A DNA stretch of 64,000 nt. Source: a virus. Lineage: Duplodnaviria; Heunggongvirae; Uroviricota; Caudoviricetes. The notes beneath the pieces were generated by a model that was not told where the DNA came from, ran no database searches, and worked only from the letters and a program-made list of their open reading frames with translations. Shown in pieces: positions 4,611-54,342 of the stretch; position 1 is the stretch's first letter, and the number at the start of each line of letters is the position of its first letter. The translations under genes and the position numbers were made by a program. The DNA lies in the IMG/VR virus record IMGVR_UViG_3300023707_000001. One strand, written 5' to 3'.

Positions 4611-5102
4611 TTAGGCAACTTTCGTTTTCATCGAAAGCGCCTTTTTTAAGATGTTGATTGCCGCGTTTCGGTCACGGTCGAGGGATTCTCCGCAGTGCGG
4701 GCAAACCCAGTCTCGAACGCTTAAATCTTTGACGATTGGATTCTGAAATCCGCAGACATGGCATGTTTGGCTGGACGGATAGAACGTTGGAATTTTTACC
4801 AATTTCCCGCCACGCTCTTTGGTTTTATAGTCCAGTTTTTCGAAGAACATTCCCCATGCAACGTCACTTATTGCCTTAGCTAATTTTTTATTCTTTACCA
4901 TGCCCTTGACGTTTAATTTTTCAACGGCAACGAGGGAATTTTCATTAACCAAGTGATAAGATAATTTGTGCTGAAAATCATTCCTCGTGTTTGTAATTTT
5001 TTCGTGAACACGAGCAACTCGTACACGTTGTTTTTTCCATTGACCAGAACCTAACTTGGCCTTTCGCTGTTTACTGTGGGTAAGGGCTTGAAGCCCACCC
5101 AA
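4611..5102 (-). pseudogene. tnpB: TnpB (IS200/IS605 OrfB) C-terminal fragment, N-terminally truncated
   Basis: Matches the TnpB C-terminal half: RuvC-II, a Zn finger (CHVCG...CPHCG) and RuvC-III (DRDRNAAINIL). There is no Met start (TTG) and an in-frame stop lies immediately upstream at the ISL3 junction. Confidence 0.65.
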
Positions 5103-6400
5103 AAATCTTATAGAATTATATCCATGAGATTATAAGACAGAAAGGCGTTATCTTACTTATCATGAATACAACTGACTTATTTGCGGCAGCTTTGAACCTG
5201 CCGGAACCTTGGTCTATATCCAAGGTGGAGTTCAAGCCGGACTCATCCGGAACTATGGAACTTCATATAGAGCTCTCCTTTCCCAGAGGCAGTAAGTTTG
5301 CTTGCCCCGAATGCGAAGCTGAAACTACTGCCTACGACACGACGCCTAGAACCTGGCGCCACCTTAATTTCTTTCAATACAAGACCTATATCCATGCTGA
5401 CCTACCACGGATTAAGTGCGGCGAACATGGTGTAAAAACCGTCAGCGTCCCTTGGGCTAGAGAAGGTTCTGGTTTTACCCTACTCTTCGAAGGCTGGGTT
5501 GTGGAGCTGGCTAAGCACCTGCCTGTCGCCACTATTGCCAATATGGTAGATGAGCATGACACCCGCCTCTGGCGGTTCATCAAGCATTATGTCGATGAGG
5601 CCCGCGCCCGTGAAGATTACTCCGAAGTCAATGCTATCGGCATCGACGAGACCAGCAAGAAAGGTCACAAGTATGTCACCGTAGTTGTTGACTTGGCCCA
5701 ACGCAAGGTTATCTTTGTTACTAACGGCAAAGATTCTGCCACCGTAGATCGGTTCGTAAAAGACTTCAAGGAACATAAAGGCATTCCGGGCAATATCAAA
5801 ATCGTCACCTGCGATATGTCCTTGGGCTTCAAGAAAGGCATTAACGAGCACTTCGTCAACAGCAGCACTGTCATCGATAAATTCCATGTCATCAAGCATA
5901 TCAATGAAGCTCTGGACGAGGTTCGCCGCGATGAAGTCAGGCAAGGTCCTTGGTATAAGCACCTGCTTAACAAGAGCAAATGGCTCTGGCTCAAGAATGA
6001 TGCGAATCTCACCGATAAACAGCTTGAGCGCAAGGAGTCGCTAATGCACAAGCGCCTGAAAACGGCTAGAGCCTACGCTATGCGCGTTACCCTGCAGGAT
6101 ATTTACGAGACATCTTTTAACCGCACCACCGCTGAAGAGCGTCTTAACCAGCTGTACAATTGGCTCACACGTTCGCGACTTACCCCCATGAAAAACTTTG
6201 CTAAACTGCTAAAAAATCACTGACAGGAAATACTCAATTACTTTGACTATCGCTACACCAACGCTATTTTGGAAGGCATGAATAGCATTATCCAGAATAT
6301 AAAGCGCCGTGCCCGCGGATTCCGTAACGATGAGTATTTCAAGACTATGATTTATCTGGGCTGCGGAAAATTGAATTTAGATATATAAGGGAGAGACTTG
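5103..6400 (+). mobile_element. ISL3-family insertion sequence (boundaries approximate)
   Basis: Contains an ISL3-type transposase. It truncates the tnpB remnant on the left and separates two copies of a duplicated phage gene cassette. Inverted repeats could not be defined by eye. Confidence 0.4.
5162..6223 (+). CDS. ISL3-family transposase, interrupted by an in-frame TGA (homology continues to 6390)
   Basis: N-terminal Zn-finger (CPEC...C..H) and a DDE_Tnp_ISL3-like body. After the TGA at 6221-6223 the same frame encodes QEILNYFDYRYTNAILEGMNSIIQNIKRRARGFRNDEYFKTMIYL, the conserved ISL3 C-terminus. Confidence 0.8.
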   Translation: MNTTDLFAAALNLPEPWSISKVEFKPDSSGTMELHIELSFPRGSKFACPECEAETTAYDTTPRTWRHLNFFQYKTYIHADLPRIKCGEHGVKTVSVPWAREGSGFTLLFEGWVVELAKHLPVATIANMVDEHDTRLWRFIKHYVDEARAREDYSEVNAIGIDETSKKGHKYVTVVVDLAQRKVIFVTNGKDSATVDRFVKDFKEHKGIPGNIKIVTCDMSLGFKKGINEHFVNSSTVIDKFHVIKHINEALDEVRRDEVRQGPWYKHLLNKSKWLWLKNDANLTDKQLERKESLMHKRLKTARAYAMRVTLQDIYETSFNRTTAEERLNQLYNWLTRSRLTPMKNFAKLLKNH

Positions 6401-8336: not shown

Positions 8337-8876
8337 TCATAACCTTGACAAATATTTTGCCGGCACTCTGTCCGTTAACCATACGCCATTGACGGACTGG
8401 TAGAACAGGAAACCATCCCTGTACATCTCACCAGCAAACACCCTGTAAATAATATTCTTGCCTTTGCGTCTGGCCGCTACCTTTGTCGCGGTTTCTACGT
8501 TCTCCGATAAATGTACATGCAGCCTATTTCCTTTTATCAGTCCTTTTGCCTCAATGGAAGCGCTGTTCTTTTCTACAGTACCGTGATATAGTACGGCGGG
8601 CGGTTTCACCGGCTTCAGCTCCACATCCACATGTATCGAATGTCCCTGGTTGGCTCTTATCTTTTTTCTGTCTGCGCTGAACGAAAACCTTTGTTTGTCG
8701 TTCTCTGCGACAATTCTCTCCAGCAGGGGAAGGTCTATACTGTGGCCTGTCTTATTTATTTTTTGCAGCAGTTCTTCCACATTAGCCCAGCCATGCTCGT
8801 CAAGCGTGATGCCTATTGTCTCTGGCTTATGGCGCAAAATCAGAGATAAGAATTTGCTTAGCTTCTTTAGCTCCAT
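8337..8876 (-). CDS. kptA: RNA 2'-phosphotransferase (Tpt1/KptA family)
   Basis: Strong match to KptA/Tpt1 signature blocks: LSKFLSLILRHKPE, GW, KQRF, IRANQGHS, LYHGT, LHVHLS, ATKVAARRKG, NGVWLT. Confidence 0.9.
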   Translation of the reverse strand: MELKKLSKFLSLILRHKPETIGITLDEHGWANVEELLQKINKTGHSIDLPLLERIVAENDKQRFSFSADRKKIRANQGHSIHVDVELKPVKPPAVLYHGTVEKNSASIEAKGLIKGNRLHVHLSENVETATKVAARRKGKNIIYRVFAGEMYRDGFLFYQSVNGVWLTDRVPAKYLSRL

Positions 8877-28190: not shown

Positions 28191-28946
28191 CTACGCATCG
28201 CCTCTTTTTGTGTTTATTATTCTTTCGTGTATTGCCGCTTTTATGAATTTATTTAAATCTTCAAGCGGCTGGGGGTTTGGTTTTTGGTCCACAAAAAAGG
28301 ATTCCACTTCCTTTGCGTGATTGCGGTAATTATCCAAATGAAACTTTACCGTTTTCAGTGAAAATTCCCCTTCTTTGAACCAAAGTAATGCATCTCGGCA
28401 CATACTATCTTGTTCGTACCAAAAAGCGCTTGCAAAATATCGAGTTTTATAATACCTCGTAAGAAAGTCCACTACACGTATAGCGTGATGGGCGCTCTTA
28501 GGGTCGTATCCATACGTTTGAATTGCCTCATGCCTAGCGGGCGAGTCCATCAACATCAGCTTTTCCTTTTGAATAGACGTTCCCATCGATGCTGCATATA
28601 AGCGAGGCAGATTCATTGTTGCCAGCTTTTCCCTATTCTCTGTTAAATAATCAATCAGGGTAGAATTGCCGCTCAATTCTCTGGAATACAGGATTTCAAT
28701 AAAGTTTAGATTCGCTTTCCAAAGTAAACTCGGAAGCTTGCGAATATCATGGATGGTATAATCTTCCGTATTGGTGACAACTTCTTTATGATATTCCTGA
28801 TTGCGATAAAGGTCCTCAAACGTTGGCCACACGAAATACTTGTAGTCTTTATCGGACTTTGGTGTGTTCAAGTTATAATTATGGCTACCTACCAACGCTT
28901 TCAGGCAAATGGCGTGGCCATCAACAATGTCTCCGACATCAAACAC
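28191..28946 (-). CDS. pol-beta-superfamily nucleotidyltransferase (251 aa)
   Basis: hGS-x10-SDKD pattern (LVGSHNYNLNTPKSDKDY), the G[GS]...DxD signature of the pol-beta NTase fold. Confidence 0.55.
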   Translation of the reverse strand: MFDVGDIVDGHAICLKALVGSHNYNLNTPKSDKDYKYFVWPTFEDLYRNQEYHKEVVTNTEDYTIHDIRKLPSLLWKANLNFIEILYSRELSGNSTLIDYLTENREKLATMNLPRLYAASMGTSIQKEKLMLMDSPARHEAIQTYGYDPKSAHHAIRVVDFLTRYYKTRYFASAFWYEQDSMCRDALLWFKEGEFSLKTVKFHLDNYRNHAKEVESFFVDQKPNPQPLEDLNKFIKAAIHERIINTKRGDA

Positions 28947-32588: not shown

Positions 32589-32681
32589 ATATAATTACTG
32601 GCGGACAGGGCACGATTCGAACGCGCGCGCCGCATCACTGCGACCTAGTGAGGTTCAAGCTCACCCTCTTCAACCACTTGA
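32589..32681 (-). tRNA. tRNA-Ser(TGA), type II
   Basis: Reverse complement folds as GGACAGG/CCTGTCC acceptor, anticodon loop CTTGAAC, long variable arm, T-loop TTCGAAT and encoded CCA. Confidence 0.75.
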
Positions 32682-33066
32682 GTACCTGTCCATGATAAAT
32701 GCGGCAATGAGTATTCAGACGGTTCCCCTACACTGACGGGACCTTTCGGGCGTTTATTTATTGTCTCCGCCCGAAGAAGATACCTGCAGCCGCATGTAGC
32801 AGGCATATTTATAGTGTTTGCGCACTTGGAGCTGTTGGAATTGCACAGACTTCGCATCCGGAATTGAAGCCTGTACGCACCAACACTTATTACCACCAGG
32901 ACGCCCGTCGGCGTGTCGGGAATCGAAACCCGCTCTTACTGTCCAATGTAGGAACTCCTTATAAAGGGAAACCCTGGACTCGAACCAGGCTGACCACCAC
33001 GGACCCCGCAGGGCGTCGGGAATCGAACCCGAATGCTCTTTTCCGCCACCTGACGTTTCCCATAAT

Positions 33067-33143
33067 ATGGTGCCCCTCCAGAGATTCGAACTCTGACTGT
33101 ACCGGGCTTAAACCGGTTGCCTCTGCCAATTGGGCTAGAAGGG
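33067..33143 (-). tRNA. tRNA with anticodon TAA (Leu-decoding) but short variable arm (atypical type I)
   Basis: Acceptor GCCCTTC/GAGGGGC, anticodon arm ACCGG-TTTAAGC-CCGGT, T-arm CAGAG-TTCGAAT-CTCTG, CCA encoded. Confidence 0.5.
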
Positions 33144-33149
33144 CATAAT

Positions 33150-33236
33150 ATGGTGCGCCTAGCAAGACTTGAACTTGCACGGTATCACTACCAGGAGATT
33201 TTGAATCTCCCATGTCTGCCAATTCCATCATAGGCG
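33150..33236 (-). tRNA. tRNA-Leu(CAA), type II
   Basis: Acceptor GCGCCTA/TAGGCGC, anticodon arm GGAGA-TTCAAAA-TCTCC, variable hairpin GGTA-GTGA-TACC, CCA encoded. Confidence 0.75.
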
Positions 33237-33242
33237 CATAAT

Positions 33243-33319
33243 ATGGTGTGATTGGTGCGATTTGAACGCACGACCTGCCGCTTAGGAGGCGGCTGCTCTA
33301 TCCAACTGAGCTACAACCA
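33243..33319 (-). tRNA. tRNA-Arg(CCT)
   Basis: Acceptor GTGGTTG/CAATCAC, D-arm GCTCAGTTGGATAGAGC, anticodon loop CTCCTAA, T-loop TTCAAAT, CCA. Confidence 0.75.
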
Positions 33320-33325
33320 CATGAT

Positions 33326-33388
33326 ATGGAGGCTTGGGCCGGGATCGAACCGGCGTGAAACGGTTTTGCAGACCGTTGCCTAACCACT
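33326..33388 (-). tRNA. tRNA-Cys(GCA), 3' portion only (gene interrupted by the IscB element)
   Basis: AAGTGGTTAGGC-AACGGT-CTGCAAA-ACCGT...GCCGG-TTCGATC-CCGGC-CCAAGCC-T-CCA closely matches bacterial tRNA-Cys from the D-loop onward. The 5' acceptor strand GGCTTGG is missing locally and is found 1.6 kb away at 34994-35003. Confidence 0.55.
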
Positions 33389-33390
33389 TA

Positions 33391-33437
33391 AAACGCGGCG
33401 CGGGGGACTCCACCCTCTACAGAGTGGAGGTGAGCGC
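33391..33437 (-). terminator. nested GC-rich hairpin at iscB 3' end (terminator or IS right-end structure)
   Basis: gcggcgc-ggggga-ctccac-cctctacaga-gtggag-gtga-gcgccgc: a 7-bp outer and 6-bp inner stem. Confidence 0.35.
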
Positions 33438-34685
33438 CGCTTCTCTCCTTTCGACTAAATACGAATTATTATGCATCAAAAATGTTATTTTTGATGGTGC
33501 TACTTCAGCCTTAGTTCCGTCTAGGTGCTTTAAGACAAAAGAACCTTTGACTCTCATACCTCTCACAAACCAGCATTGCTTTTGATAAAACACTGTGTCA
33601 TTTAAGCAGAACCCCCGAACAATATGTCCGGCTTGTGCTCGCTTACGAACGCCGCCTTTTGCTGGCACTTCGCGATGCAACTTACGGTTATGCCGACGAA
33701 TTTGTTTACGAAGATATTCGTAGTTGAGCCGTTCTGCATTGATATTGCCCGCAATACAGTAGGCGTCTGCCGAATGTGTTTTTGTAATACCATTTTTGAT
33801 GCGAGTGTTTTTCGTGATGTAGCCGTATGTTAAATGCACATCAGGATATTGCTCTTTAAGCTTGTTGTAAAAAGCCCAACGCATAATTCCCATGAAAGTC
33901 GCGTCTCGGAATCTCATGCCACGATGTATTGTCTTCGGTAAAGAGATATTGCCTTGATGATATCCCTGATGGCAGGTTTCACAAAGCGTTATCAGGTTAT
34001 TCGGCGCATTGCCTCCAGTCATACGACTTTCAATATGATGTACATTGAGTATTGGGTCGCCAGAACTCCCTTTACAGCACTGACATTGATGACCATCACG
34101 GAATAATACGTATTCACGAACATTCGCCCATCCAAACTGTTCTCCCTGCTGATATTCGACCCCAGAAATATCAGGATTCTTGATTTTCTGAATATCGAAT
34201 TGAGCTACTTCTACAATAACTTTCGTTACCGGAAGAATCTTATGGATATCCGCCACAAGCTTTAGATGAACATTGATTTTGTTCTCCACGCTTGGCGCAA
34301 GCCAACCTTTGTGTTTACGGCGAACCCGATTCAAAAATCTTACTTTGCGATACCGTGTCTTGCGGTTCCGGCGACTGTGACGAAGTTCTAACCGTTTAGC
34401 CAAAAGCCTTACAATAGATGCTTTGCCATCACCAGAGCGCATAATCGTTTCTGAAGCATATAATTCTTGTTTCTCTGTTGATGCTGAGGCTCCGATATGT
34501 ACAGAGCCAGCATCAATACCAAGAGTTATTGGCTGTTTATAGCCAGCTGAGCCATATTTCAACTTAATTGTAAACGGCTCATATTTTACAACCATAGCTT
34601 TGTTTTCCCTCAGCAGCTTTCTAGCTTTCTGAGGTTTACAAGGCATTAACGGTTGTCCGTTTTTATTGATAACGTACACGAACAT
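33417..34685 (-). CDS. iscB: IscB (OMEGA RNA-guided nuclease, Cas9 ancestor)
   Basis: 422 aa with N-terminal PLMP domain (VINKNGQPLMPC), RuvC-I (LGIDAGS), Arg-rich bridge helix, HNH (CQCC...NVHHIESR...N..LCETCH) and RuvC-III. AGGAGG RBS 8 nt upstream. Confidence 0.85.
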   Translation of the reverse strand: MFVYVINKNGQPLMPCKPQKARKLLRENKAMVVKYEPFTIKLKYGSAGYKQPITLGIDAGSVHIGASASTEKQELYASETIMRSGDGKASIVRLLAKRLELRHSRRNRKTRYRKVRFLNRVRRKHKGWLAPSVENKINVHLKLVADIHKILPVTKVIVEVAQFDIQKIKNPDISGVEYQQGEQFGWANVREYVLFRDGHQCQCCKGSSGDPILNVHHIESRMTGGNAPNNLITLCETCHQGYHQGNISLPKTIHRGMRFRDATFMGIMRWAFYNKLKEQYPDVHLTYGYITKNTRIKNGITKTHSADAYCIAGNINAERLNYEYLRKQIRRHNRKLHREVPAKGGVRKRAQAGHIVRGFCLNDTVFYQKQCWFVRGMRVKGSFVLKHLDGTKAEVAPSKITFLMHNNSYLVERREAALTSTL

Positions 34686-34993
34686 AACGTGTACCTCCTT
34701 TCCGAAGCTGAAGCTTCAAATTAGAGTAAATCTACCCTTCGCCAATGTTGTAATCGCTTGCCCGCAATGGCGGGCCGTCCTTAGGTTGACCGTTCCTCCT
34801 CTCAGAACTTTTACAGAGCCTACACAGAGCGGGGAGCTAGGATAAACACCCACGGGTGTGATAACGAAAACAACGTAGTCCGAGGCTTTTTCAAGCACTT
34901 GTCTAATACCGGACTTAGGCTAGTCGGTAAGAGCTTGCTTTCGCAAGCTCCCGCCTTCAAGCGCAAAGCGCTAGACGGGGGTTATTGACTAGA
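34686..34993 (-). ncRNA. IscB omegaRNA (HEARO-like), 5' guide expected at the tRNA-Cys junction
   Basis: About 300 nt directly upstream of iscB, ORF-free and hairpin-dense (GGGAGCTTGC-GAAA-GCAAGCTC, ACACCCGTGGGTGT, GCCCGC-CATT-GCGGGC), running up to the tRNA 5' fragment. Confidence 0.6.
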
Positions 34994-35003
34994 CTACCAA
35001 GCC
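34994..35003 (-). tRNA. tRNA-Cys(GCA) 5' fragment (GGCTTGGTAG)
   Basis: Exact complement of the 3' acceptor strand CCAAGCC at 33329-33335; it sits directly after the array spacer CATAATAAGG. Confidence 0.4.
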
Positions 35004-35011
35004 ATAATAAG

Positions 35012-35160
35012 GGGCAGTGGCGGGAATCGAACCCGCAACCAGCATCACCTATAAACTGTTTGCAACCAGTGTTATAGGCATGTTCTGTTTTATATCGGCG
35101 CAACCATTTCGTTAAGAGTCCTGTTTGCAACCAGAAAACTTAATATAGCCGACACTGCCA
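35012..35160 (-). tRNA. tRNA-like gene with ~70-nt internal duplication (probable pseudogene)
   Basis: Acceptor GGCAGTG/CACTGCC and T-arm GCGGG-TTCGATT-CCCGC are 149 nt apart; the anticodon-like module CTGGTTGCAAACAG occurs twice. Confidence 0.3.
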
Positions 35161-35169
35161 TGATAATAT

Positions 35170-35245
35170 TGGTCGGGATGACAGAATTCGAACCTGCGGC
35201 CTCCTGCTCCCAAAGCAGGCGCTGCCACCACTGAGCTACACGCGG
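35170..35245 (-). tRNA. tRNA-Pro(TGG)-like, acceptor stem not complementary (possible pseudogene)
   Basis: D-arm TAGCTCAGTGGTGGCAGC, anticodon arm CCTGC-TTTGGGA-GCAGG, T-loop TTCGAAT and CCA are present, but 5' CCGCGTG does not pair with 3' CATCCCG. Confidence 0.4.
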
Positions 35246-35579
35246 ATGATAGATATCCGGTTCGCAGGGAGCTCGACTAAGCGGTTGCCCTTTGTAGATA
35301 TCTTCACTATGCATCTTATCCTCTCTTCGCCGCATCGAGTCGGGAGCTACACCTAACTCTTTGGATAATACGCATAAAAATATTCAACTCGATGTACATA
35401 ATAAAGTCCGGAAGGTGTCCCGGTCTTGCCCCGGCTACTCACTTTTGTTTTGAGCTTTTGCCGGTGCCGATATATGGCCATATGACTTGTCCGTATCTTT
35501 ATCATACGGGAAAAGCCGACGCCAATATACCAGCGTTCTTTTCCTTCATCGTCAGACGTTAGCCTGATTTTGAAGATGA

Positions 35580-35662
35580 TGGCAGGGGTAACTGGACTCG
35601 AACCAGTGTAAGTAAATCGGAGCTTCAAAGGCTCCCGCCTTAACCAACTTGGCTATACCCCT
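35580..35662 (-). tRNA. tRNA-Gln(TTG) with unusually long (11 nt) variable region
   Basis: Acceptor AGGGGTA/TACCCCT, D-arm GCC-AAGTTGGTTAA-GGC, anticodon arm GGAGC-CTTTGAA-GCTCC, T-arm ACTGG-TTCGAGT-CCAGT, CCA. Confidence 0.6.
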
Positions 35663-35667
35663 AAGAT

Positions 35668-35724
35668 GAGGGACGGCAGGGTTCGAACCTGCGACGCATT
35701 GCGCCCGCCTCTCAACGACCCCTC
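35668..35724 (-). ncRNA. ~57-nt anticodon-arm-less tRNA-like element (mini-tRNA)
   Basis: Acceptor-like stem plus intact T-arm GCAGG-TTCGAAC-CCTGC, with only about 23 nt between them. Confidence 0.3.
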
Positions 35725-35963
35725 ATAAGTGGAAGGCTGTATTCCTTTCGTGCACAGCACACCGAAGCACTACCCAGAATGTTATACTGTCTGAGCGCAG
35801 TTGTTTCTTGAACAATAGCTAAAAAGGCTTTCGCCCGTACAACTCTCAATCTTTATTAAGAGCTCTACGGGCGCCTGAACCGAAGTTCAGAGCGCTCGCT
35901 ATTTTGTTTGTTTCTTAGAAAAAGGAGAGGAACTTACAAGGCTTTCGCCTTGCTTATTCCATA

Positions 35964-35995
35964 TGGTGGACCCCCTCGGACTTGAACCGAGGACC
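35964..35995 (-). tRNA. tRNA 3' remnant (T-arm + acceptor 3' strand + CCA) abutting the HNH endonuclease gene
   Basis: CTCGG-TTCAAGT-CCGAG-GGGGTCC-A-CCA; no matching 5' half. The HNH gene's stop codon is 19 nt away. Confidence 0.4.
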
Positions 35996-36013
35996 CGCGT
36001 CCACTGATTTTGT

Positions 36014-36643
36014 TTATGCGCCATACTTTTCGTACGACTTTATCCATTTTGCTATGGCCTTACCAGAAACGCCATAGCGCCGTCCCATCTCAGATTTGTT
36101 GCGACCAACTTCTTCATACTCTTTGAAGAATTCTTCTTTCGTTGGACGCACCGTCTTTCTTGCCCAGGGACGTATATTTCCTAAGACCGCTTCATCGACA
36201 TCATAATGGTTACAGAATTTTTCTTTTTCCATCGCTTTTTTTGCAACTTTTTCTTCTGCTATACGAACTCTTTCTTTTAGTGGAACAATCCATTTTTCGT
36301 ATTCATTAAGTTTGTGCTGTCCTTTAGCATGTTCTTCGGCATGGCAGTTAGCGCAAAGAAGAACACATTTGTCTAATTCCTTTTTTAAGCGATGCCAGCC
36401 GAGATTGTATTTTTGTCCAATGCCAAAATTCTTTTGCTGGGGGTCGAGATGATGGAATACCAATGCATTTTCGCATTTATCGTATCCGCATACCTGACAT
36501 TTCCTGCCTTTGTACTTAACAGCTCTTTGTTTCAAAAGCTTTTTTCTATAGTTTTGTCTGCAAGTGTTACAAATGTCTTTTGAGTGTCCTTTACTGCGGC
36601 CATATTCATATTCATTGCCACAAACTTTACATACATATTTCAA
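36014..36643 (-). CDS. HNH homing endonuclease with C-terminal HTH
   Basis: HNH core VFHHLDP...N...LLCANCH with a flanking Zn-ribbon CKVCG...CNTC; C-terminal GRRYGVSGKAIAKWIKS helix-turn-helix. Confidence 0.7.
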   Translation of the reverse strand: MKYVCKVCGNEYEYGRSKGHSKDICNTCRQNYRKKLLKQRAVKYKGRKCQVCGYDKCENALVFHHLDPQQKNFGIGQKYNLGWHRLKKELDKCVLLCANCHAEEHAKGQHKLNEYEKWIVPLKERVRIAEEKVAKKAMEKEKFCNHYDVDEAVLGNIRPWARKTVRPTKEEFFKEYEEVGRNKSEMGRRYGVSGKAIAKWIKSYEKYGA

Positions 36644-36725
36644 TTCATATCACCGTAGGCAACATTACCTATTGTGTGAACTTAAAACATGATGTTAGTT
36701 CAAAAAGTGCTCACAAATTAATTAA

Positions 36726-36804
36726 TGGTCCAGGCGGTGGGACTTGAACCCACGTAAGACACGGCTTATAAGGCCGCCGCTACCACCAACTTAGCTACGC
36801 CTGG
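36726..36804 (-). tRNA. tRNA-Ile(TAT) (AUA decoder)
   Basis: Acceptor CCAGGCG/CGCCTGG, D-arm GCTA-AGTTGGTGG-TAGC, anticodon arm GCGGC-CTTATAA-GCCGT, T-arm GTGGG-TTCAAGT-CCCAC, CCA. Confidence 0.55.
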
Positions 36805-36810
36805 GTAAGG

Positions 36811-36850
36811 TGGACCCCTCAGGGCTTCTAACCAACTGAGCTAGGGGTCC
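36811..36850 (-). ncRNA. ~40-nt tRNA-like hairpin (acceptor stem + D-arm only)
   Basis: GGACCCC-TA-GCTCAGTTGGTTAGAAGC-CCTGA-GGGGTCC-A-CCA. Confidence 0.3.
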
Positions 36851-37141: not shown

Positions 37142-37706
37142 ACATGATATAAACGGGAATGTTGCTGCGGTAGCTGCAAATCCTACCGCAACTCCCGTGA
37201 TACTTTTACGAAGCTCGAAACGGAGGATGCCAACCCGTCATTCTACAGACTCGTCCTTTGCAGTGGACTACTGATGGCCCCTTTATTATATAATTGCGTT
37301 GATACCCGACTGTTAATGCAGTATCCTGGGGCATATAGCCGCCCGCTTTTTGGTTAGTATATGACTCTTCCCGACAGAGCATCATCAGCTAAGTGATGTC
37401 TTGGGGTTTATGTCTTGTCCTTGACAACCGGCTTTGCCTTGTCACGGCATCCCATGATGCTTGGTCTGTCATGGTATCCGCCGAAATCTAACCCTGTCAT
37501 TTCGGTAACTGATTTTCGTACAGTCATTTTTCAGGATGATCAGTCCTGCAATCAGGTTTACGCTGCTTTCTTACGCATAGCAGTAAATACGCGGCGCGGC
37601 AACGCCAATCACCTGTTGGCGCAGGTGTTTTTGCTGTTTCTCGTTCAGCTCCGACAGGTGAATTCAGGCCTGTCCAATTACGCTCTTGTCGCAACCAAGA
37701 GAGGTA

Positions 37707-39966: not shown

Positions 39967-39996
39967 GTTCCTTTGAGACGTTAACCTCATCGGAAC
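39967..39996 (+). promoter_or_regulatory. conserved hairpin gttcc-tttgag-ACGTTAAC-ctcatc-ggaac
   Basis: Two-tier stem with invariant loop; lies 3' of the tmRNA candidate. Confidence 0.4.
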
Positions 39997-40003
39997 GGTG
40001 GCT

Positions 40004-40033
40004 GCCGCTTCAAGACGTTAACCTTGTCGCGGC
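40004..40033 (+). promoter_or_regulatory. conserved hairpin gccgc-ttcaag-ACGTTAAC-cttgtc-gcggc
   Basis: As above. Confidence 0.4.
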
Positions 40034-40035
40034 CG

Positions 40036-40433
40036 TGGAGACGACGGGAGTCGAACCCGTGTCCAAAATGCATCCACCTGTAAGACATTATCGCAATAGG
40101 CATTTTTAAGAGCGCCATTCTCTAGGGTGTAACCAGCCGAACAAAGCGTAATGGTCTACACCTCCACCACCTGCTTTTTCGAAAGCAGGAAAACTCCCCG
40201 TGTTGTTTACGTCGAGCGGGCCTCCTGACGTTTGCTGTGTTTATTTGAAACCTACCGCCCTGCTCACAGCTAGTGATACGATAGGGGCTAACCAATCTAC
40301 CTTACGGCAGATTAGGCAGCGAGACGATATTCAACTTCGTCAGTTAAATTTAGCGGTTAATGAGTTAGACGTCATAACCATCGGTCTGCGAATCTTACGG
40401 CTTCAACACCCTGTCGAAACCAATTTCGTCCCC
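40036..40433 (-). ncRNA. ssrA: tmRNA (ssrA) candidate, tag ending ...DEVEYRLAA
   Basis: 5' GGGGACGAAATTGGTTTCGACAGGG and 3' GGACACGGGTTCGACTCCCGTCGTCTCCA closely parallel E. coli tmRNA ends (GGGGCUGAUUCUGGAUUCGACGGG ... GGACGCGGGUUCAACUCCCGCCAGCUCCACCA). The acceptor pairs GGGGACG/CGTCTCC. An internal frame reads ...ACT GAC GAA GTT GAA TAT CGT CTC GCT GCC TAA. Confidence 0.65.
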
Positions 40434-41998
40434 ATATGACCCTTTCGGGTCAGGCTATTAAACGCTTTTACTGGTATGAAAGATGATGAAGTACCAGTGC
40501 AGGTTTTTAGTGCCCGAGATACAGCAGCACTGTGTCGGATTGACCCATCCAAGCTTTGGCAAATAACTGCCCGATACCTGGGGGGTAAGCTTTACCGATT
40601 TGAACGAGATTGCTGTCCCTGTCTTTGCTTACGAGGTCTAATAATAGCATGCTCCGCATTGCGCTATACGGAACAAGGTACTCCTTCCGCATTTGTCGCG
40701 AATGAGCTATGATACCCGAAAGGATAAGCAGTATCTGGAGAATTTGGAGATGGGTTAGTCTCCATGACCGAGTTCTCGCTTTTTTTTATGAATTCCTTTT
40801 ACGGCCGCCAAGTAACTTACTCACCCCGCAGGGGAGGCCCACATGTCTTTGGCGTTTACCGGATTACTGCCGTAGCCACCGGTTTCCCTGCTTAACCCTG
40901 TGCCAAGCAGTTATCTTATGCAGGTTTTATGTCGGTTCTTCCGACTCGGGCGGCTTATTACGTAGTGCCCTTACCCTACGCCGTTTTTCGCCTTGGAGGC
41001 TAAATCACCTTCGTGCCTGTTATTATCCTTAAGTTGATAAGCTGTGTACTTTAGCTCATCCAGATAAAAGTAATCCAGGTACGCTTGGCGCAACCTTGCT
41101 ACCACTGAACCGAGCTACCGTTTGTACTTTACGGCGTTATCGGGGTGGACCAGGTTTTATATTCTTCGGTATACCTCCACCGAAAGGAATGCCTTCGCGT
41201 CGTTATTCTGAGTGCTAAAAACCGTGGCCTTTAGTTCTTACTTCCTCAGCAATTGTCCGATAGCGAACGCTCCGATAAAGGTCATCTCTTCGGCTGTTGG
41301 CACCGGGTAATCGAGACGCCTGCACACAGCAGTGCGAACCCAAAAACGCGGTTGGCCTATTCTGGTTACAGCCAAGGGTAATGGAGCCCTTATCCCGGTT
41401 TAACCTACCGTGCCGGGCAAGGAAAGCTTTCGTGTCGTGGAACGCGGCCTTATCGCCTGTCCGGCATGCTCCTTTCGGGACATCCGGGGTCCACGGTGAC
41501 TCAAGCTGGCTGTCTATTTACGCGCTCGCAGCCATTGAACGCCCGATTCTTAGAACTTCGGAAAACCCGCGAAATATTCATGGAGCTGTTTAACGTGCTT
41601 TACACCTTCATCGTCGCGGAAGCTTGACCTCACGGGCTATCCTAAGCTTATACACACCCGATAGCCAATTGGTGCCCGATTTTAATATCGGGAAACATCT
41701 TGATGCCCGGCTCCCAAGGCAGCATCATGGATTTAACATCGCCTGTAAAGGTAGCGACCCTTTTACATTTCCGGCGCCCAATTGCGCACGGTGGAGATTG
41801 GATAAGCGCTCCTTGCAGGAATCGAACCTGCCTTATGTACTGGATTGGTTATCCAGTATAAGCATAGCTCCCAGAGTTGGAACATTATAGGCGCCTGATA
41901 TGCTTTTACCATCCCTCAGGCGGGGGATGCCACGTCTGGAAATCATTGTGGCACAATGTTTGTTCCGAAAAGATTGATCATTTCCCTCAGAACAATGT

Positions 41999-42053
41999 TG
42001 CTCAATACAGGAATCGAACCTGTCTACCGGCCGGTGTCCCCCAGACTTTGAGC
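41999..42053 (-). ncRNA. ~55-nt anticodon-arm-less tRNA-like element (mini-tRNA)
   Basis: GCTCAAA-GT-CTGGGGGACACCGGCCGGTAGA-CAGG-TTCGATT-CCTG-TATTGAGC. Confidence 0.3.
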
Positions 42054-42058
42054 ATGAT

Positions 42059-42129
42059 ACCCCCAAGAAGGATTCGAACCTTCGCCGCAAGCCGTAGCCT
42101 TACGAGCTCTGCCGGAGGAGCTTTGGGGA
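42059..42129 (-). tRNA. degenerate tRNA-like gene (pseudo-tRNA)
   Basis: Acceptor TCCCCAA/TTGGGGG, D-arm GCTC-CTCCGGCA-GAGC, T-arm GAAGG-TTCGAAT-CCTTC; no canonical anticodon arm. Confidence 0.3.
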
Positions 42130-42139
42130 TGTATGATAT

Positions 42140-42222
42140 AGGGGCAGGGAGGAATCGAACCACCATCATAAGAAAGCCCCATTTGCTTTCTCGTCCGCTC
42201 TAGCCATTTGAGCTACTGCCTC
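42140..42222 (-). tRNA. tRNA-like gene with 7-bp anticodon-like stem and non-canonical loop AAATGGG
   Basis: Acceptor GAGGCAG/CTGCCCC, D-arm GCTC-AAATGGCTA-GAGC, hairpin AGAAAGC-AAATGGG-GCTTTCT, T-loop TTCGATT. Confidence 0.3.
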
Positions 42223-43083
42223 ATTATGGGGGCGACTTGTTTTACATCCTGCCGCCTTCGGATATGCGGTCAACCGTTGCCTCTACCGCCAGGGGGAATT
42301 TATACGATTTTTTTCCTTATCGGGTTTTATCGTCTTTTCCTTGACACGTATGATACAATAGACATCGGCTGAGAATATCGTAAAAATACTTTATCTACCT
42401 TTCACAAAACATGCATAACAAATGCTCCTCACCGAGCATTCCTTGCTACTGGGCAAGCACGGTAGCAATACATGTAGGCCAGGTATGGGATAACAGCTCG
42501 CAATCTTGCAAAAGACCTCGCGACCTGCCCGCCCCGCTGAAGTTTTTCCAAAAAACTTAGAAAGGAAGATTTAGCCATGGAATTATCCTTGACTCCGGAG
42601 TTTTTCGACTCTTTGCGCGATGCGCTGTATGCCGTCGCACTCGTAGTTTTAGCGTTTAAGTCCTAATACTTGCATAAAACGATATTCCCGGCTATTTTTA
42701 TATCTATTGCATCATACCTGCCAAGGAGGCAGGTATTTTTTGATTGCTGCTCGTCTCAAACAGCTTGGCTACTCAGCGTCGGTGTAGCCTCTCGTGCCGG
42801 GTTTTAACGGCTTTTCCTTGCCGTTGCCCACGGTCGAACCGTGAAAGCCTTGCACCTATCCGGCTTGTCCTCTAGGGCCGGATGTACCGTATTTCTTTAG
42901 GCGTTCATACGGTGTCCTCATTGGAGACTTTCTACCACTGGCCAAGTTTCTTTCTGGGCGCTCCGGAGGCTTGCAGGAAGCGGTACAGCCTCTCTGCATT
43001 CTTTATTCGCTGCATGGTTCTCTTGGCAACCAGCAGTCAGGTCACGCATGTTTTATGGCCGACATTAGTGTCGGTCGCAAAAT

Positions 43084-43380
43084 TTAAAAATCTGAATCTC
43101 GCTCGTAAGTTTCCTCAATTTTATATGAGTGAATTTCTAAGCGATGTTCACCATCGTTGTAATACGCGCCATTGTCACAATCTTCAAGGCCGTATTCATT
43201 AACCCAGTCGTCATAGCATGCCTGGGCGGCTTCGGCGTTTGAAAAAACACCCATAACGTCCTGGTCATAATCATCGCATAAAGTTTGGTGAATAACCATA
43301 TATACTGTCATATTCTTCTCTCCTAAAACAGGATTCTCATAAGGTGGACGATATTCTATGGCCTCATCCGGGCCAGTCAC
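43084..43380 (-). CDS. hypothetical acidic protein (98 aa)
   Basis: Minus ORF inside the RNA-gene region. Confidence 0.4.
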   Translation of the reverse strand: MTGPDEAIEYRPPYENPVLGEKNMTVYMVIHQTLCDDYDQDVMGVFSNAEAAQACYDDWVNEYGLEDCDNGAYYNDGEHRLEIHSYKIEETYERDSDF

Positions 43381-44456: not shown

Positions 44457-44542
44457 TGGAGCCCCCGGTCAGATTCGAACTGACGTGTCCTTTCGGAACC
44501 GGTTTACAAAACCGGTGCAATCGGCCTCTATGCGACAGGGGC
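44457..44542 (-). tRNA. tRNA-Thr(TGT) with 12-nt variable region
   Basis: Acceptor GCCCCTG/CGGGGGC, anticodon arm CCGGT-TTTGTAA-ACCGG, variable TCCGAAAGGACA, T-arm GTCAG-TTCGAAT-CTGAC, CCA. Confidence 0.6.
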
Positions 44543-44548
44543 GTAATA

Positions 44549-44624
44549 TGGAGCGGAAAACGAGACTCGAACTCGCGACACCCGACTTGGAAGGACGGTG
44601 CTCTACCAACTGAGCTATTTCCGC
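44549..44624 (-). tRNA. tRNA-Gly(TCC)
   Basis: GCGGAAA-TA-GCTCAGTTGGTAGAGC-A-CCGTC-CTTCCAA-GTCGG-GTGTC-GCGAG-TTCGAGT-CTCGT-TTTCCGC-T-CCA; near-identical architecture to bacterial tRNA-Gly. Confidence 0.8.
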
Positions 44625-44627
44625 AAA

Positions 44628-44703
44628 TGGCTCCCCGAGCTGGACTCGAACCAGCGACATATGGATTAACAGTCCACCGTTCTACCGGCTGAACTATCGG
44701 GGA
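44628..44703 (-). tRNA. tRNA-Asn(GTT)
   Basis: TCCCCGA-TA-GTTCAGCCGGTAGAAC-G-GTGGA-CTGTTAA-TCCAT-ATGTC-GCTGG-TTCGAGT-CCAGC-TCGGGGA-G-CCA. Confidence 0.8.
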
Positions 44704-44798
44704 AGGGCGTAGGCAGTTAGGTCATACCCAGGACCTATTCTGTTTCCCTCATATCAGGGCCGTTGTAAGCCGACATGAGTGGCCGAATAGTAACCATT

Positions 44799-44830
44799 CC
44801 TTAGTGTTGTTTCTTGCCGGACGTTAACCC
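44799..44830 (+). promoter_or_regulatory. conserved hairpin gtttc-ttgccgg-ACGTTAAC-ccggtt-cgaaac
   Basis: Lies 15 nt 3' of tRNA-Ser(GCT). Confidence 0.4.
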
Positions 44831-44844
44831 GGTTCGAAACATGA

Positions 44845-44936
44845 TGGCGGAGCCGGTTGGATTTGAACCAACGATACCCTATAATGGGTATAACACCTTA
44901 GCAGGGTGCCGCCTTAAGCCTCTCGGCCACGACTCC
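44845..44936 (-). tRNA. tRNA-Ser(GCT), type II
   Basis: Acceptor GGAGTCG/CGGCTCC, anticodon arm GCACC-CTGCTAA-GGTGT, long variable hairpin TATACCC-ATTA-TAGGGTATC, T-loop TTCAAAT, CCA. Confidence 0.75.
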
Positions 44937-45173
44937 GGTTGAGCAGTTATTTCATGCTCAGGAACTACTCTGTTTTCCAATTCTACCGACGGATTAAGGC
45001 AGTCTCGTGGCCGAATAGTAGCCATTTTTTGTCATTAAGACCGTCTGGGACTCAACAACATATATCTAATCCCTTTGCAGGGGATTATTCATAGAATACT
45101 GCATTTGGTACTTGGCTCAGGGGGGGTAATGATACCACGCTGCAGTGGGCGTCCAGGAAATTGTTAGCCTCTA

Positions 45174-45192
45174 ACCAGACGTTAACCTGGTG
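45174..45192 (+). promoter_or_regulatory. conserved hairpin aaccag-ACGTTAAC-ctggtg
   Basis: Fifth copy of the motif. Confidence 0.35.
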
Positions 45193-45316
45193 TTGGGCAT
45201 TATCAGGCGGCCGGCAATTTTTACATCCCTCGACCGCGAAGGATACCGCTTTCGCGGCACTACACGTAGTGTTGCGCCCAGTCGGTTGATCGGACCAACC
45301 GGACTAATATTAGCTA

Positions 45317-45391
45317 AGCCAATGCCAGGACTCGAACCTGGGTCGCCGAGGTTACAGTTTCGGTGCTCTCTCCCTATTGAGCTACATCGGC
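45317..45391 (-). tRNA. tRNA with 18-nt anticodon arm (8-nt loop; anticodon TGT or GTA ambiguous)
   Basis: Acceptor GCCGATG/CATTGGC, D-arm GCTC-AATAGGGA-GAGC, anticodon arm CCGA-AACTGTAACC-TCGG, T-arm CCAGG-TTCGAGT-CCTGG; no CCA encoded. Confidence 0.45.
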
Positions 45392-45868
45392 ATGATGAAT
45401 ATGGACAAAACGCCAGCCAGGACTAAAAATCTTTGGTTGTAACCACCAATAAAAGTAAAATACCTGGATTTTTATCCGACCGTCAACCCCATACCTTAAA
45501 TATACTTTTTTCAAAAAAAGAAAATTAAATGGTGACGGTGCTTCTTTAAAGGTTTGCGCTTTTATCGTTAAACGAAAAAATCTTTAACAGTTAAATCTTT
45601 CAGCTTTTTGCTTTAGATTTTTGAGCTTTGCAAGGTAGGGCTCCATTGTGCGGAGCAATCTTCTTTATTCATATACGCTTTAAAAAAGCGGTGCCAATTG
45701 TTCATATCGGCTGATTTTCCACATACTTGCATGTGCTGTTAGAACCATTTTATACTTTGGTCAGAAGTTGTTACTTGCAAGATTTTCAGCGCTTCATCCA
45801 TATAAAATTGTGTGTAGTTTTGAAACTTTATATTTTGCGACTGACATGAATGTCGGTCGCAAAATTTC

Positions 45869-53847: not shown

Positions 53848-54342
53848 TTATTTCTTTCGATTTAACCTATCGATACACTTCCAGACTTGATAATCCGTTA
53901 ATCCTACCATTTCATCCGTCTTGACCATTTGTTCCGGATAGAGGGCCAGAATATCGAAGTCCTCGTCATCCAATATGGCAAAAGTATCGACATTCTCATC
54001 ATAGTCGTGCGTTATAAGCCATTCCCGGATTTGTTCTCCGCGTCTATTGTTGTTAATAGGCGTTACATCCTCTATGGCCATGCCGTATTCAGCTAAACGC
54101 TGTTTGAGCCGGTCGCAAGTACCATGCTCATAACCAGCGCGCCATGATGATGACAGTATGATTTTTGCGCCGGTTTCATCTATGATTTTCTTCAAGAGCT
54201 CAAATGGCTTATCGCTTATGAGCTTCACAGAGAACCGGTCTGCAGCGGAATTCATCACACCGTCAACATCAAGGAACAGATATTTCATGCTATTCTTCCT
54301 CCAGCGCGTCGTTAATCTTATCCAGAGCATCGTCGGCTTCAA
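53848..54342 (-). CDS. HAD-superfamily phosphatase (HAD-SAK-like, RNA-repair-associated type)
   Basis: LFLDVDGVMN (DxDGV) catalytic motif at the N-terminus; small-cap HAD. Confidence 0.55.
   Translation of the reverse strand: MKPTMLWIRLTTRWRKNSMKYLFLDVDGVMNSAADRFSVKLISDKPFELLKKIIDETGAKIILSSSWRAGYEHGTCDRLKQRLAEYGMAIEDVTPINNNRRGEQIREWLITHDYDENVDTFAILDDEDFDILALYPEQMVKTDEMVGLTDYQVWKCIDRLNRKK

Follow-up and report, generated by a model that had tools for sequence, protein, structure and literature searches.

A sequence-divergent one-piece tmRNA gene in the tRNA cluster of a probable human-gut jumbo phage

Transfer-messenger RNA (tmRNA) genes have been recorded in 402 of 18,146 phage genomes, or 2.3% (PMC9004378). 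Huge phages carry tmRNA, some of them together with SmpB (Al-Shayeb et al. 2020, PMC7162821), and individual cases include phage G (PMC12484599) and Stenotrophomonas phage Marzo, which has 23 tRNAs and 1 tmRNA (PMC8928761). Two roles have been proposed for such RNAs, namely the upkeep of hijacked translation and the tagging of proteins for recycling (PMC9004378, PMC7162821). In this work, we describe a tmRNA (ssrA) gene in a 64,000-nucleotide stretch of DNA from an uncultivated virus of the Caudoviricetes (IMG/VR record IMGVR_UViG_3300023707_000001); we refer to this whole stretch as the window. The gene is very probably a functional one-piece tmRNA gene of an uncultivated jumbo phage of the human gut, with a genome of about 226 kb and a host that is probably a member of the Bacillota/Clostridia.

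As in the known tmRNA phages (the huge phages, phage G, Marzo and Methylophilales phage Melnitz), the tmRNA gene of the window lies beside many tRNA genes in a large genome. It differs from the two-piece tmRNAs of marine phages and from the tmRNA of phage G, the tag of which is AKLNITNNELQVA rather than DEVEYRLAA; in addition, some huge phages encode SmpB, whereas none was seen in this window. Since phage tmRNAs as such are already documented, what is new here is a phage tmRNA of divergent sequence. It is set apart mainly by its tag, by strong divergence in the parts beyond the tRNA-like domain, and by a 3' end at which, unlike in most of the neighbouring tRNA genes, CCA is not encoded. The gene thus adds a well-supported divergent member to the small set of phage tmRNAs and strengthens the picture of large phages that bring their own translation-rescue parts, leaving the knowledge of tmRNA or of phages otherwise unchanged.

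Gene identity, architecture and tag

The complete gene occupies positions 40036..40433 on the minus strand and is 398 nucleotides (nt) long, from G1 to the discriminator A398, as given by the sequence, ARAGORN and Rfam. ARAGORN calls a tmRNA at 40035-40433(-) with the tag DEVEYRLAA*, and the Rfam family RF00023 matches 40033-40433(-) at 90.7 bits, where the gathering score is 47 (E 6.1e-34), which is far past chance expectation. The alignment is not truncated, covering model positions 1-374 of 374, and the defining sequence and structure features of the family are present, with the fourth pseudoknot drawn only tentatively. The whole tmRNA also folds better than its shuffled versions, with a minimum free energy (MFE) z-score of -3.3. 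A first-pass annotation, made from the sequence, had proposed a candidate tmRNA at this place and named the tmRNA covariance model and ARAGORN as ways to check it; both bear the proposal out.

The sequence GGGGACGAAATTGGTTTCGACAGGG lies at 40433->40409 and the sequence GGACACGGGTTCGACTCCCGTCGTCTCCA at 40064->40036, both on the minus strand. The end strings quoted in that annotation are both present, and the strand, which it did not name, is the minus strand. It was also right that the two ends, 398 nt apart, pair as a GGGGACG/CGTCTCC helix; this is the 7-base-pair (bp) acceptor helix, with a G3:U wobble included. It had further described the ends as nearly identical to those of E. coli ssrA. 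A resemblance at the level of the family holds, but close similarity does not, as a blastn search of 5,426 E. coli genomes gave an insignificant 39-nt match (E=5).

Like bacterial tmRNAs of RF00023, the window gene consists of a tRNA-like domain, helix 2 (H2), pseudoknot 1 (PK1), a tag open reading frame (ORF), helix 5 (H5) and pseudoknots PK2-4. We numbered the nucleotides from G1 and assigned the secondary structure by hand from the window sequence, which gave 104 bp in 16 helices, all of them standard pairs. All genomic positions given below for parts of the tmRNA are on the minus strand.

The 5' strand of the acceptor stem, GGGGACG (nt 1-7, 40427..40433), was verified by a pair check and is unchanged in all 5 copies. 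Its pairs are G1:C397, G2:C396, G3:U395, G4:C394, A5:U393, C6:G392 and G7:C391, followed by A398. A G3:U wobble is the identity element by which alanyl-tRNA synthetase (AlaRS) recognizes tRNA-Ala and tmRNA. The T-arm, ACGGG/CCCGU with the loop UUCGACU (nt 374-390), the acceptor 3' strand CGUCUCC (nt 391-397) and A398 together occupy 40036..40060, as supported by Rfam and the pair check. Both the T-arm and a reduced D-arm, UUGGUUUCGAC at nt 11-21, align to RF00023 at top-level posterior probabilities; compared with bacterial tmRNAs, the D-loop region of the window gene has one extra nucleotide.

Helix 2 is formed by a 5' strand at nt 21-47 (40387..40413), paired by hand, and a 3' strand at nt 339-370 (40064..40095), located by Rfam and hand pairing; all of its 23 pairs are standard. 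PK1 (nt 48-80, 40354..40386) pairs by hand as an H-type pseudoknot with the stems S1 GAC(C)G/CGUC (4 bp) and S2 UGGUUA/UAACCG (6 bp), and 12 nt separate its end from the resume codon GAC93. Helix 5 (nt 119-142, 40292..40315), obtained by folding and hand pairing, has a 10-bp stem and a GUAA loop and holds the UAA stop codon. PK2 (nt 149-200, 40234..40285) comprises S1 CCUAUCG/CGGUAGG and S2 GCUGUG/CACAGC, and PK3 (nt 203-237, 40197..40231) comprises S1 ACGUC..GG/CU.GACGU and S2 CCCG/CGGG, both again by hand pairing. In the PK4 region (nt 245-335, 40099..40189), folding and hand pairing yield two hairpins, of 8 bp and 10 bp, as well as a stem (AGAG/CUCU) with a small GGC/GCC knot. This drawing is not unique, and we assign PK4 only tentatively, as the least certain element of the structure model. 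The foldings that the first-pass annotation had named as a check, those of PK1-PK4 and of the tag-ORF helix, were therefore obtained by hand pairing for PK1, helix 5, PK2 and PK3, and as a tentative drawing for PK4.

The tag frame (nt 93-122, 40312..40341) reads GAC GAA GUU GAA UAU CGU CUC GCU GCC UAA, that is, D-E-V-E-Y-R-L-A-A-stop, according to ARAGORN and the Rfam alignment. The resume codon, which the first-pass annotation had left to be located, is the GAC at 40339-40341 (nt 93), and it is preceded by U(-5)A(-4). The RF00023 alignment places this GAC on the GCa of the model, and in an alignment of bacterial tmRNAs the resume codons GAC/GCT share a column with it. Because the ARAGORN call, the Rfam alignment and the bacterial alignment agree, the tag starts at Asp and not at T. 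Thus, of the reading ...TDEVEYRLAA-TAA proposed earlier, the frame DEVEYRLAA-stop stands, but the leading T is dropped, as it corresponds to an ACU codon upstream of the resume codon. The frame has neither a start codon nor a Shine-Dalgarno (SD) sequence, its product has an LAA-type end, and its stop lies inside helix 5. A C-terminal LAA is the canonical recognition element of ClpXP, as in the E. coli ssrA tag. Including the alanine carried by the tmRNA itself, the full tag would be (A)DEVEYRLAA.

Conservation, relatives and origin

One relative informative about constraint, contig L044 (NCBI JAMQYI011854319.1), was located via a neighbouring 177-aa protein. It carries a tmRNA with the same tag, which scores 84.1 bits in Rfam, and its neighbour protein is 82% identical to that of the window. 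Between the window and L044, the tmRNA is 94.0% identical, the tag ORF 100% and the tag plus H5 98.4%. The surroundings are less alike: the neighbouring coding sequence (CDS) is 83.7% identical, the upstream non-coding flank 84.0-86.4% and the downstream spacer 88.7%. Judged against this one relative, the sequence comparison shows purifying selection on the tmRNA gene.

The two tmRNAs differ by 21 substitutions. Eleven of them fall at paired positions, and all eleven keep a standard pair: there are two double-sided pair changes (G27:C364 to A:U in H2 and U151:A181 to C:G in PK2) and seven one-sided changes via G:U. A remaining set of 9 substitutions and 3 indels lies in unpaired positions or loops. 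By element, helix 2 shows one wobble change in addition to its compensatory change, and G141A in helix 5 converts a U:G into a U:A pair. PK1 contains C63U and G80A, with pairing retained both times; as these are one-sided changes only, the support for PK1 is modest. PK2 is well supported, since two more of its pairs change in a wobble-compatible manner beside the compensatory one. PK3 is identical in the window and L044 and hence without covariation evidence, and the PK4 region is the most variable segment (89.5% identical). When the pairing partners were slid as a control, the fraction of paired cells dropped from 99.7% to about 40% and the number of double-change pairs from 2 to 0-1. Other copies of the same phage differ little: the tmRNAs of L009 and L010 are identical to that of the window, L050 is identical over its overlap with the window, and L011 has one change, a C:A mismatch in H5.

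Apart from these, close relatives were not obtained. Among the 50,697 GenBank phage records, megablast of 3 kb around the tmRNA gene gave no match, and blastn of the tmRNA gave only T-arm-length matches of 32-47 nt. In IMG/VR, the exact 5' 25-mer, a degenerate 5' 21-mer and a back-translated tag pattern gave 0 matches each, and the 3' 29-mer found two other tmRNAs only, which have bacterial-like high Rfam scores and different tags. In metagenomes, a scan for the CCA-less 3' end turned up the same phage once more (L050). Its other matches were CCA-less tmRNAs of unrelated sequence that lie in tRNA arrays and numerous bacterial tmRNAs with the tag AEDNLAFAA, with no intermediate relatives usable for covariation among them. 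The 177-aa neighbour has homologues of 40-43% identity in IMG/VR and of 58-83% identity in metagenomes; most of them have no tmRNA in their vicinity, L044 being the sole exception. Such homologues are carried by the metagenome contigs L037-L043, among them a contig of 213 kb and others from gut metagenomes; a DUF6927 protein is encoded by one of the genes that lie upstream of the homologue there.

The acceptor 5' strand GGGGACG and a 29-nt stretch comprising the T-arm and the acceptor 3' strand are identical to those of Clostridia and Trichococcus tmRNAs. In the GTDB genomes, the 3' 29-mer found 24 loci, nearly all of them in Bacillota; the matching genomes are Trichococcus and metagenome-assembled genomes (MAGs) of gut and rumen Clostridia (Lachnospiraceae, Oscillospiraceae, Eubacteriales). 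Because the tRNA-like domain is identical to that of Bacillota tmRNAs, its sequence suggests that a host from the Bacillota provides the AlaRS, SmpB and EF-Tu on which the tmRNA relies, and the host is probably a bacterium of the Bacillota/Clostridia. The shared domain is thus usable as a host clue. Many such Bacillota tmRNAs are also about 400 nt long and encode 9-residue, Asp-first tags ending in AA, with DNDTVA[LM]AA to be compared with DEVEYRLAA in the window.

Outside the tRNA-like domain, in contrast to these similarities, the window gene is essentially unalignable with bacterial tmRNAs. All bacterial tmRNAs retrieved are 55-61% identical to it in global alignment, as compared with about 51% for shuffled sequence, and its Rfam score is about 60 bits lower than theirs. 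No donor could be singled out among the 24 GTDB loci, because none of them is more than 61% identical overall. This low identity points to an old acquisition or to fast divergence. The gene also differs from bacterial tmRNAs in its setting, a phage tRNA cluster with no smpB found in the window.

Other CCA-less tmRNAs in tRNA arrays were found in environmental metagenomes, at 9270-9642 of contig L047, 4313-4685 of L056, 6268-6627 of L062 and 1688-2047 of L071. Like the window gene, they lie among tRNA genes and are followed by a trailer other than CCA, and their 30-nt 3' ends are identical to its own. They differ from it in their unrelated bodies (56-57% identity), their length of 360-373 nt and the long tags that ARAGORN predicts for them, such as ANVINVDFAKKAPALRAAA. 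These four may be further phage tmRNAs.

Carrier genome, proposed function and competing explanations

The tmRNA gene is situated inside an RNA-gene cluster of about 13 kb (~32.6-45.4 kb) that contains 14 tRNA genes, 13 found by ARAGORN and a weak 14th found by Rfam. With few exceptions, the window ORFs are short and encoded on the minus strand, and small same-strand genes that match phage families, together with tRNA arrays, extend for more than 20 kb to either side of the tmRNA. The flanking genes have PHROG or Pfam matches to an NAD-dependent DNA ligase, a PcfJ-like protein, an N6/N4 methylase, DUF1599, HNH endonucleases, an RNA 2'-phosphotransferase and HAD_SAK_2, and a Phage_ProQ_C_like domain adjoins the ligase. 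The PHROG matches include phrog_3869, phrog_200, phrog_5470 and phrog_1491, the last of which occurs in 641 phage records, and a flanking Band-7 protein has its best matches in phages of Bacillus, Staphylococcus and Enterococcus. The ORFs of the window that were scanned and the called genes of overlapping contigs include neither an integrase nor a bacterial housekeeping gene. The context is therefore phage-type, and the statement of the first-pass annotation that the gene is phage-encoded is supported, as it sits between tRNA arrays and phage-family genes with no housekeeping gene or smpB nearby.

Metagenome contigs of 0.2-1 Mb encode proteins with exactly the sequence of window proteins, and the one of these contigs that was read is 226,034 bp long (JGI Ga0216344_100026). 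A relative at 60% identity is represented by a contig that was read and has 213,548 bp, and by others listed with lengths of up to 260,012 bp. The gene order of the window is repeated on several independent metagenome contigs, and several contigs with the 3' pattern or a homologue of the neighbour gene are labelled as human-gut metagenome. Jumbo phages typically combine tRNA arrays with extended series of short ORFs that share one orientation and have no Pfam match, as is seen here. A jumbo phage is the best-supported reading of the carrier, not one proven from the window alone.

Three genes of the RNA-repair type, all on the minus strand, accompany the tRNA and tmRNA genes. At 8337-8876 there is an RNA 2'-phosphotransferase Tpt1/KptA (phrog_5470, E 3e-74; PF01885 on contig L075), at 53848-54342 a protein with the HAD_SAK_2 'Swiss Army Knife RNA repair' domain (E 4e-25), and at 28191-28946 a nucleotidyltransferase (phrog_388 by PHROG/Pfam search) with a weak, sub-threshold match to the RNA-repair family RlaP. 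Together with the tRNAs and the tmRNA, these genes suggest a toolkit against host defences that cleave RNA, that is, a protection against RNA-cleaving immunity.

The following course of action is modelled on the established biology of trans-translation. The tmRNA would be transcribed together with or beside the phage tRNA cluster and cut from a longer transcript, with host RNase P maturing the 5' end at G1. The 3' end would be trimmed, and the host CCA-adding enzyme would add CCA; this step would be required because the tmRNA gene encodes no CCA, as in the CCA-less Trichococcus genes, and the 11 CCA-encoding tRNA genes need no such step. Recognizing the G3:U identity pair, host AlaRS would then charge the tmRNA with alanine, after which SmpB and EF-Tu of the host would bring it to ribosomes stalled on broken or stop-less mRNAs. 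Translation would restart at GAC, add DEVEYRLAA and end at UAA, after which the ribosome would be freed and ClpXP would destroy the tagged truncated protein via its LAA degron. The benefit to the phage would be that ribosomes stay available despite host mRNA decay, anticodon nucleases and mRNA-cleaving toxins. Such a maintenance of ribosomes fits the locus because a tRNA array and RNA-repair genes accompany the tmRNA.

Several observations weigh against a functional phage tmRNA gene. The gene encodes no 3' CCA, reading ...CUCCA|CGG, whereas 11 of the 14 tRNA genes checked do. Its 90.7 bits compare with 150-155 bits for bacterial tmRNAs with the same 3' end, the part of helix 2 designated H2a has three G:U pairs in succession, and a promoter and terminator scan found no sigma-70-like promoter or intrinsic terminator adjoining the gene on its strand. 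The contigs L037-L043 keep the 177-aa gene (58-83% identity) with other small genes upstream of it in place of the tmRNA. The covariation set consists of 3 distinct sequences only, the structure tested on it was itself drawn from the window sequence, and a column-shuffle control was not significant, as 44 of 500 shuffles reached the observed value. As to the carrier, no capsid, portal, terminase or tail-sheath gene was seen within the 64-kb window, and SmpB was missing both from the window ORFs scanned, which were those of 135-422 aa, and from the Pfam annotation precomputed for overlapping contigs. The term 'phage' therefore rests on gene content and PHROG matches, and the function of the tmRNA depends on its compatibility with the SmpB of the host.

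Much of this would be expected if the gene were a decaying, non-functional relic of a tmRNA taken from a host. The Clostridia-type tmRNAs of L001, L002 and L017, which share the tRNA-like domain, encode the CCA that the window gene would then have lost; the missing promoter and terminator, the Rfam score below that of bacterial members, the related phages without the gene and the C:A mismatch in H5 of L011 point in the same direction. A relic is difficult to reconcile, however, with the intactness of the defining elements, PK4 as tentatively drawn, and with the conservation pattern, in which the tmRNA is the most conserved local segment, the tag ORF plus H5 is 98-100% identical to L044 and the substitutions at paired sites are all compatible with pairing, including two compensatory doubles. 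Moreover, a CCA that is not encoded is normal in many Bacillota, and the Trichococcus tmRNAs found here likewise end without one. We consider a relic quite unlikely. The case for maintenance of the RNA as a structured tmRNA that encodes a tag is good, though short of overwhelming; as relatives retain the 177-aa gene without the tmRNA, the gene is an accessory one, dispensable and variably present in this phage group.

The identity of the carrier can also be questioned. As tmRNA genes are frequent attB sites (PMC9004378), the gene might be the chromosomal ssrA of a host next to an integrated prophage. The matches to the 3' 29-mer in IMG/VR and metagenomes are indeed mostly bacterial-type tmRNAs on 'viral' contigs, and some loci have the 3' pattern without a callable tmRNA, as would fit prophage junctions. 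This explanation is nevertheless extremely improbable, because the gene is embedded in phage-family genes and tRNA arrays that reach beyond 20 kb in both directions, the ORFs scanned revealed neither an integrase nor smpB nor a housekeeping gene, the same gene order recurs on independent contigs, and the gene is as remote from bacterial copies in Rfam score (60 bits) and in identity (55-61%, with ~51% for shuffled sequence) as described above. The related idea that the locus is an attP fragment was rejected, as the gene is full length and no integrase lies nearby. A giant plasmid or another large mobile element with translation components, rather than a phage, would agree with the missing virion genes and with the PcfJ-like protein, a type first described on conjugative plasmids (Pfam PF14284). 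Insertion sequence (IS) elements are present as well (an ISL3 transposase, a TnpB fragment and IscB), and large putative plasmids are known to carry analogous suites of translation genes (Al-Shayeb et al., PMC7162821). Against such an element, many ORFs match the phage families named above, the Phage_ProQ_C_like domain lies beside the ligase, the runs of short co-oriented ORFs without Pfam matches and the tRNA arrays resemble those of jumbo phages, and no conjugation or plasmid replication genes were seen. We regard it as very unlikely, and a jumbo phage remains our reading of the carrier.

Other elements of the RNA-gene cluster

Short hairpins flank the tmRNA gene on its strand. A 5' leader hairpin, UGACCC-GAAA-GGGUCA (40437..40452), ends 3 nt before G1 and is conserved in L044; it is a possible processing or terminator element. 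On the 3' side, a first trailer hairpin, CAAG-GUUAACGU-CUUG (40011..40026), starts 9 nt past the discriminator, and a second, UGAG-GUUAACGU-CUCA, lies at 39974..39989. Both are conserved in L044.

The trailer hairpins belong to a recurrent type with an 8-nt loop, G(U/C)UA(A/G)CGU, of which six copies occur, all on the RNA strand within 35.5-45.2 kb. Their loops start at 45186, 44828, 40022, 39985, 37131 and 35562 (motif 35554-35564) on the minus strand. The stems are 3-5 bp long and covary (CCAG/CUGG, CCGG/CCGG, CAAG/CUUG, UGAG/CUCA, GAG/CUC and CAG/CUG). Most copies are directly downstream of called RNA genes, with two in tandem after the tmRNA 3' end. The 11-mer GGTTAACGTCT, with at most 1 mismatch, occurs 8 times as compared with 0.8 expected. 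The hairpin may be a processing or termination signal.

Upstream of the tmRNA gene, a 2.6-kb stretch at 40440-43084 (-) contains no convincing ORF, and gene callers leave it empty on other contigs too. It has four T-arm-like GGUUCGAWUCC motifs, at 41818, 42010, 42070 and 42151, only one of which is part of a called gene, a weak tRNA at 42140-42222 (33.9 bits). In this tRNA, 22 nt take the place of the 13-nt core of the anticodon arm in the model, which by eye resembles an extended anticodon stem. Apart from it, Rfam at E<=1 found nothing in the stretch; in particular, the segment 42223-43090, which folds with a z-score of -5.6, matches no family. L044 has about 470 nt of unrelated sequence in place of about 1.3 kb of the stretch (41555-42856).

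An IscB-type protein of 422 aa with RRXRR and HNH domains is encoded at 33417-34685 (-), inside the tRNA array and immediately downstream of a HEARO/omega RNA at 34726-34989 (-), which scores 83.7 bits. Just upstream of this RNA is a tRNA-like T-arm/acceptor remnant (35007-35036). The recurrent hairpin, the ORF-free stretch and the IscB/HEARO pair may be more unusual than the tmRNA itself.

All of these could be taken together as parts of a dedicated 13-kb 'RNA island' (~32.6-45.4 kb), a module run by the phage for translation maintenance and counter-defence, to which the tmRNA would belong along with the 14 tRNA genes, several uncalled tRNA-like T-arm elements, the IscB/omega-RNA, the stably folding ORF-free stretch and the recurrent GUUAACGU-loop hairpin. 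In such an island, the hairpin would be a phage-specific signal for RNA processing or punctuation that stands in for the missing CCA and terminator, and the divergent acidic tag DEVEYRLAA would be tuned to the phage's own handling of rescued proteins. We consider this extension of the phage tmRNA reading doubtful.

The 14 tRNA genes that were checked lie at 32599-36804 and 44457-45391, and 11 of them encode the 3' CCA. One of the genes without it, at 45317-45391 (-), scores 51.1 bits in Rfam; ARAGORN lists it as tRNA-??? and gives it an 'anticodon' of two bases, gt, a sign of an abnormal anticodon loop. Uncalled tRNA-like 3' ends flank an ORF for an HNH endonuclease of 209 aa (phrog_2255) at 36014-36643 (-): the end GGUUCAAGUCCGAGGGGGUCCACCA is at 35963-35988 (-), and a degenerate copy of it is at 36807-36832. 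This locus may be a tRNA gene that was disrupted or duplicated by the insertion of a homing endonuclease.

Two further repeats are likely regulatory signals. A hairpin-containing repeat of 38 nt (D12) occurs at 43048-43085 and 45830-45867, directly after the stop codons of two minus-strand ORFs, and a 25-nt repeat (D4), GGGTTTTA.CGTCTTTTCCTTGACA, has four copies, at 37402, 38200, 42322 and 42799. Outside the cluster, a TnpB fragment of 163 aa with OrfB_IS605 and Cas12f1-like TNB domains is encoded at 4611-5102 (-), and it is adjoined by an ISL3-family transposase of 353 aa at 5162-6223 (+).

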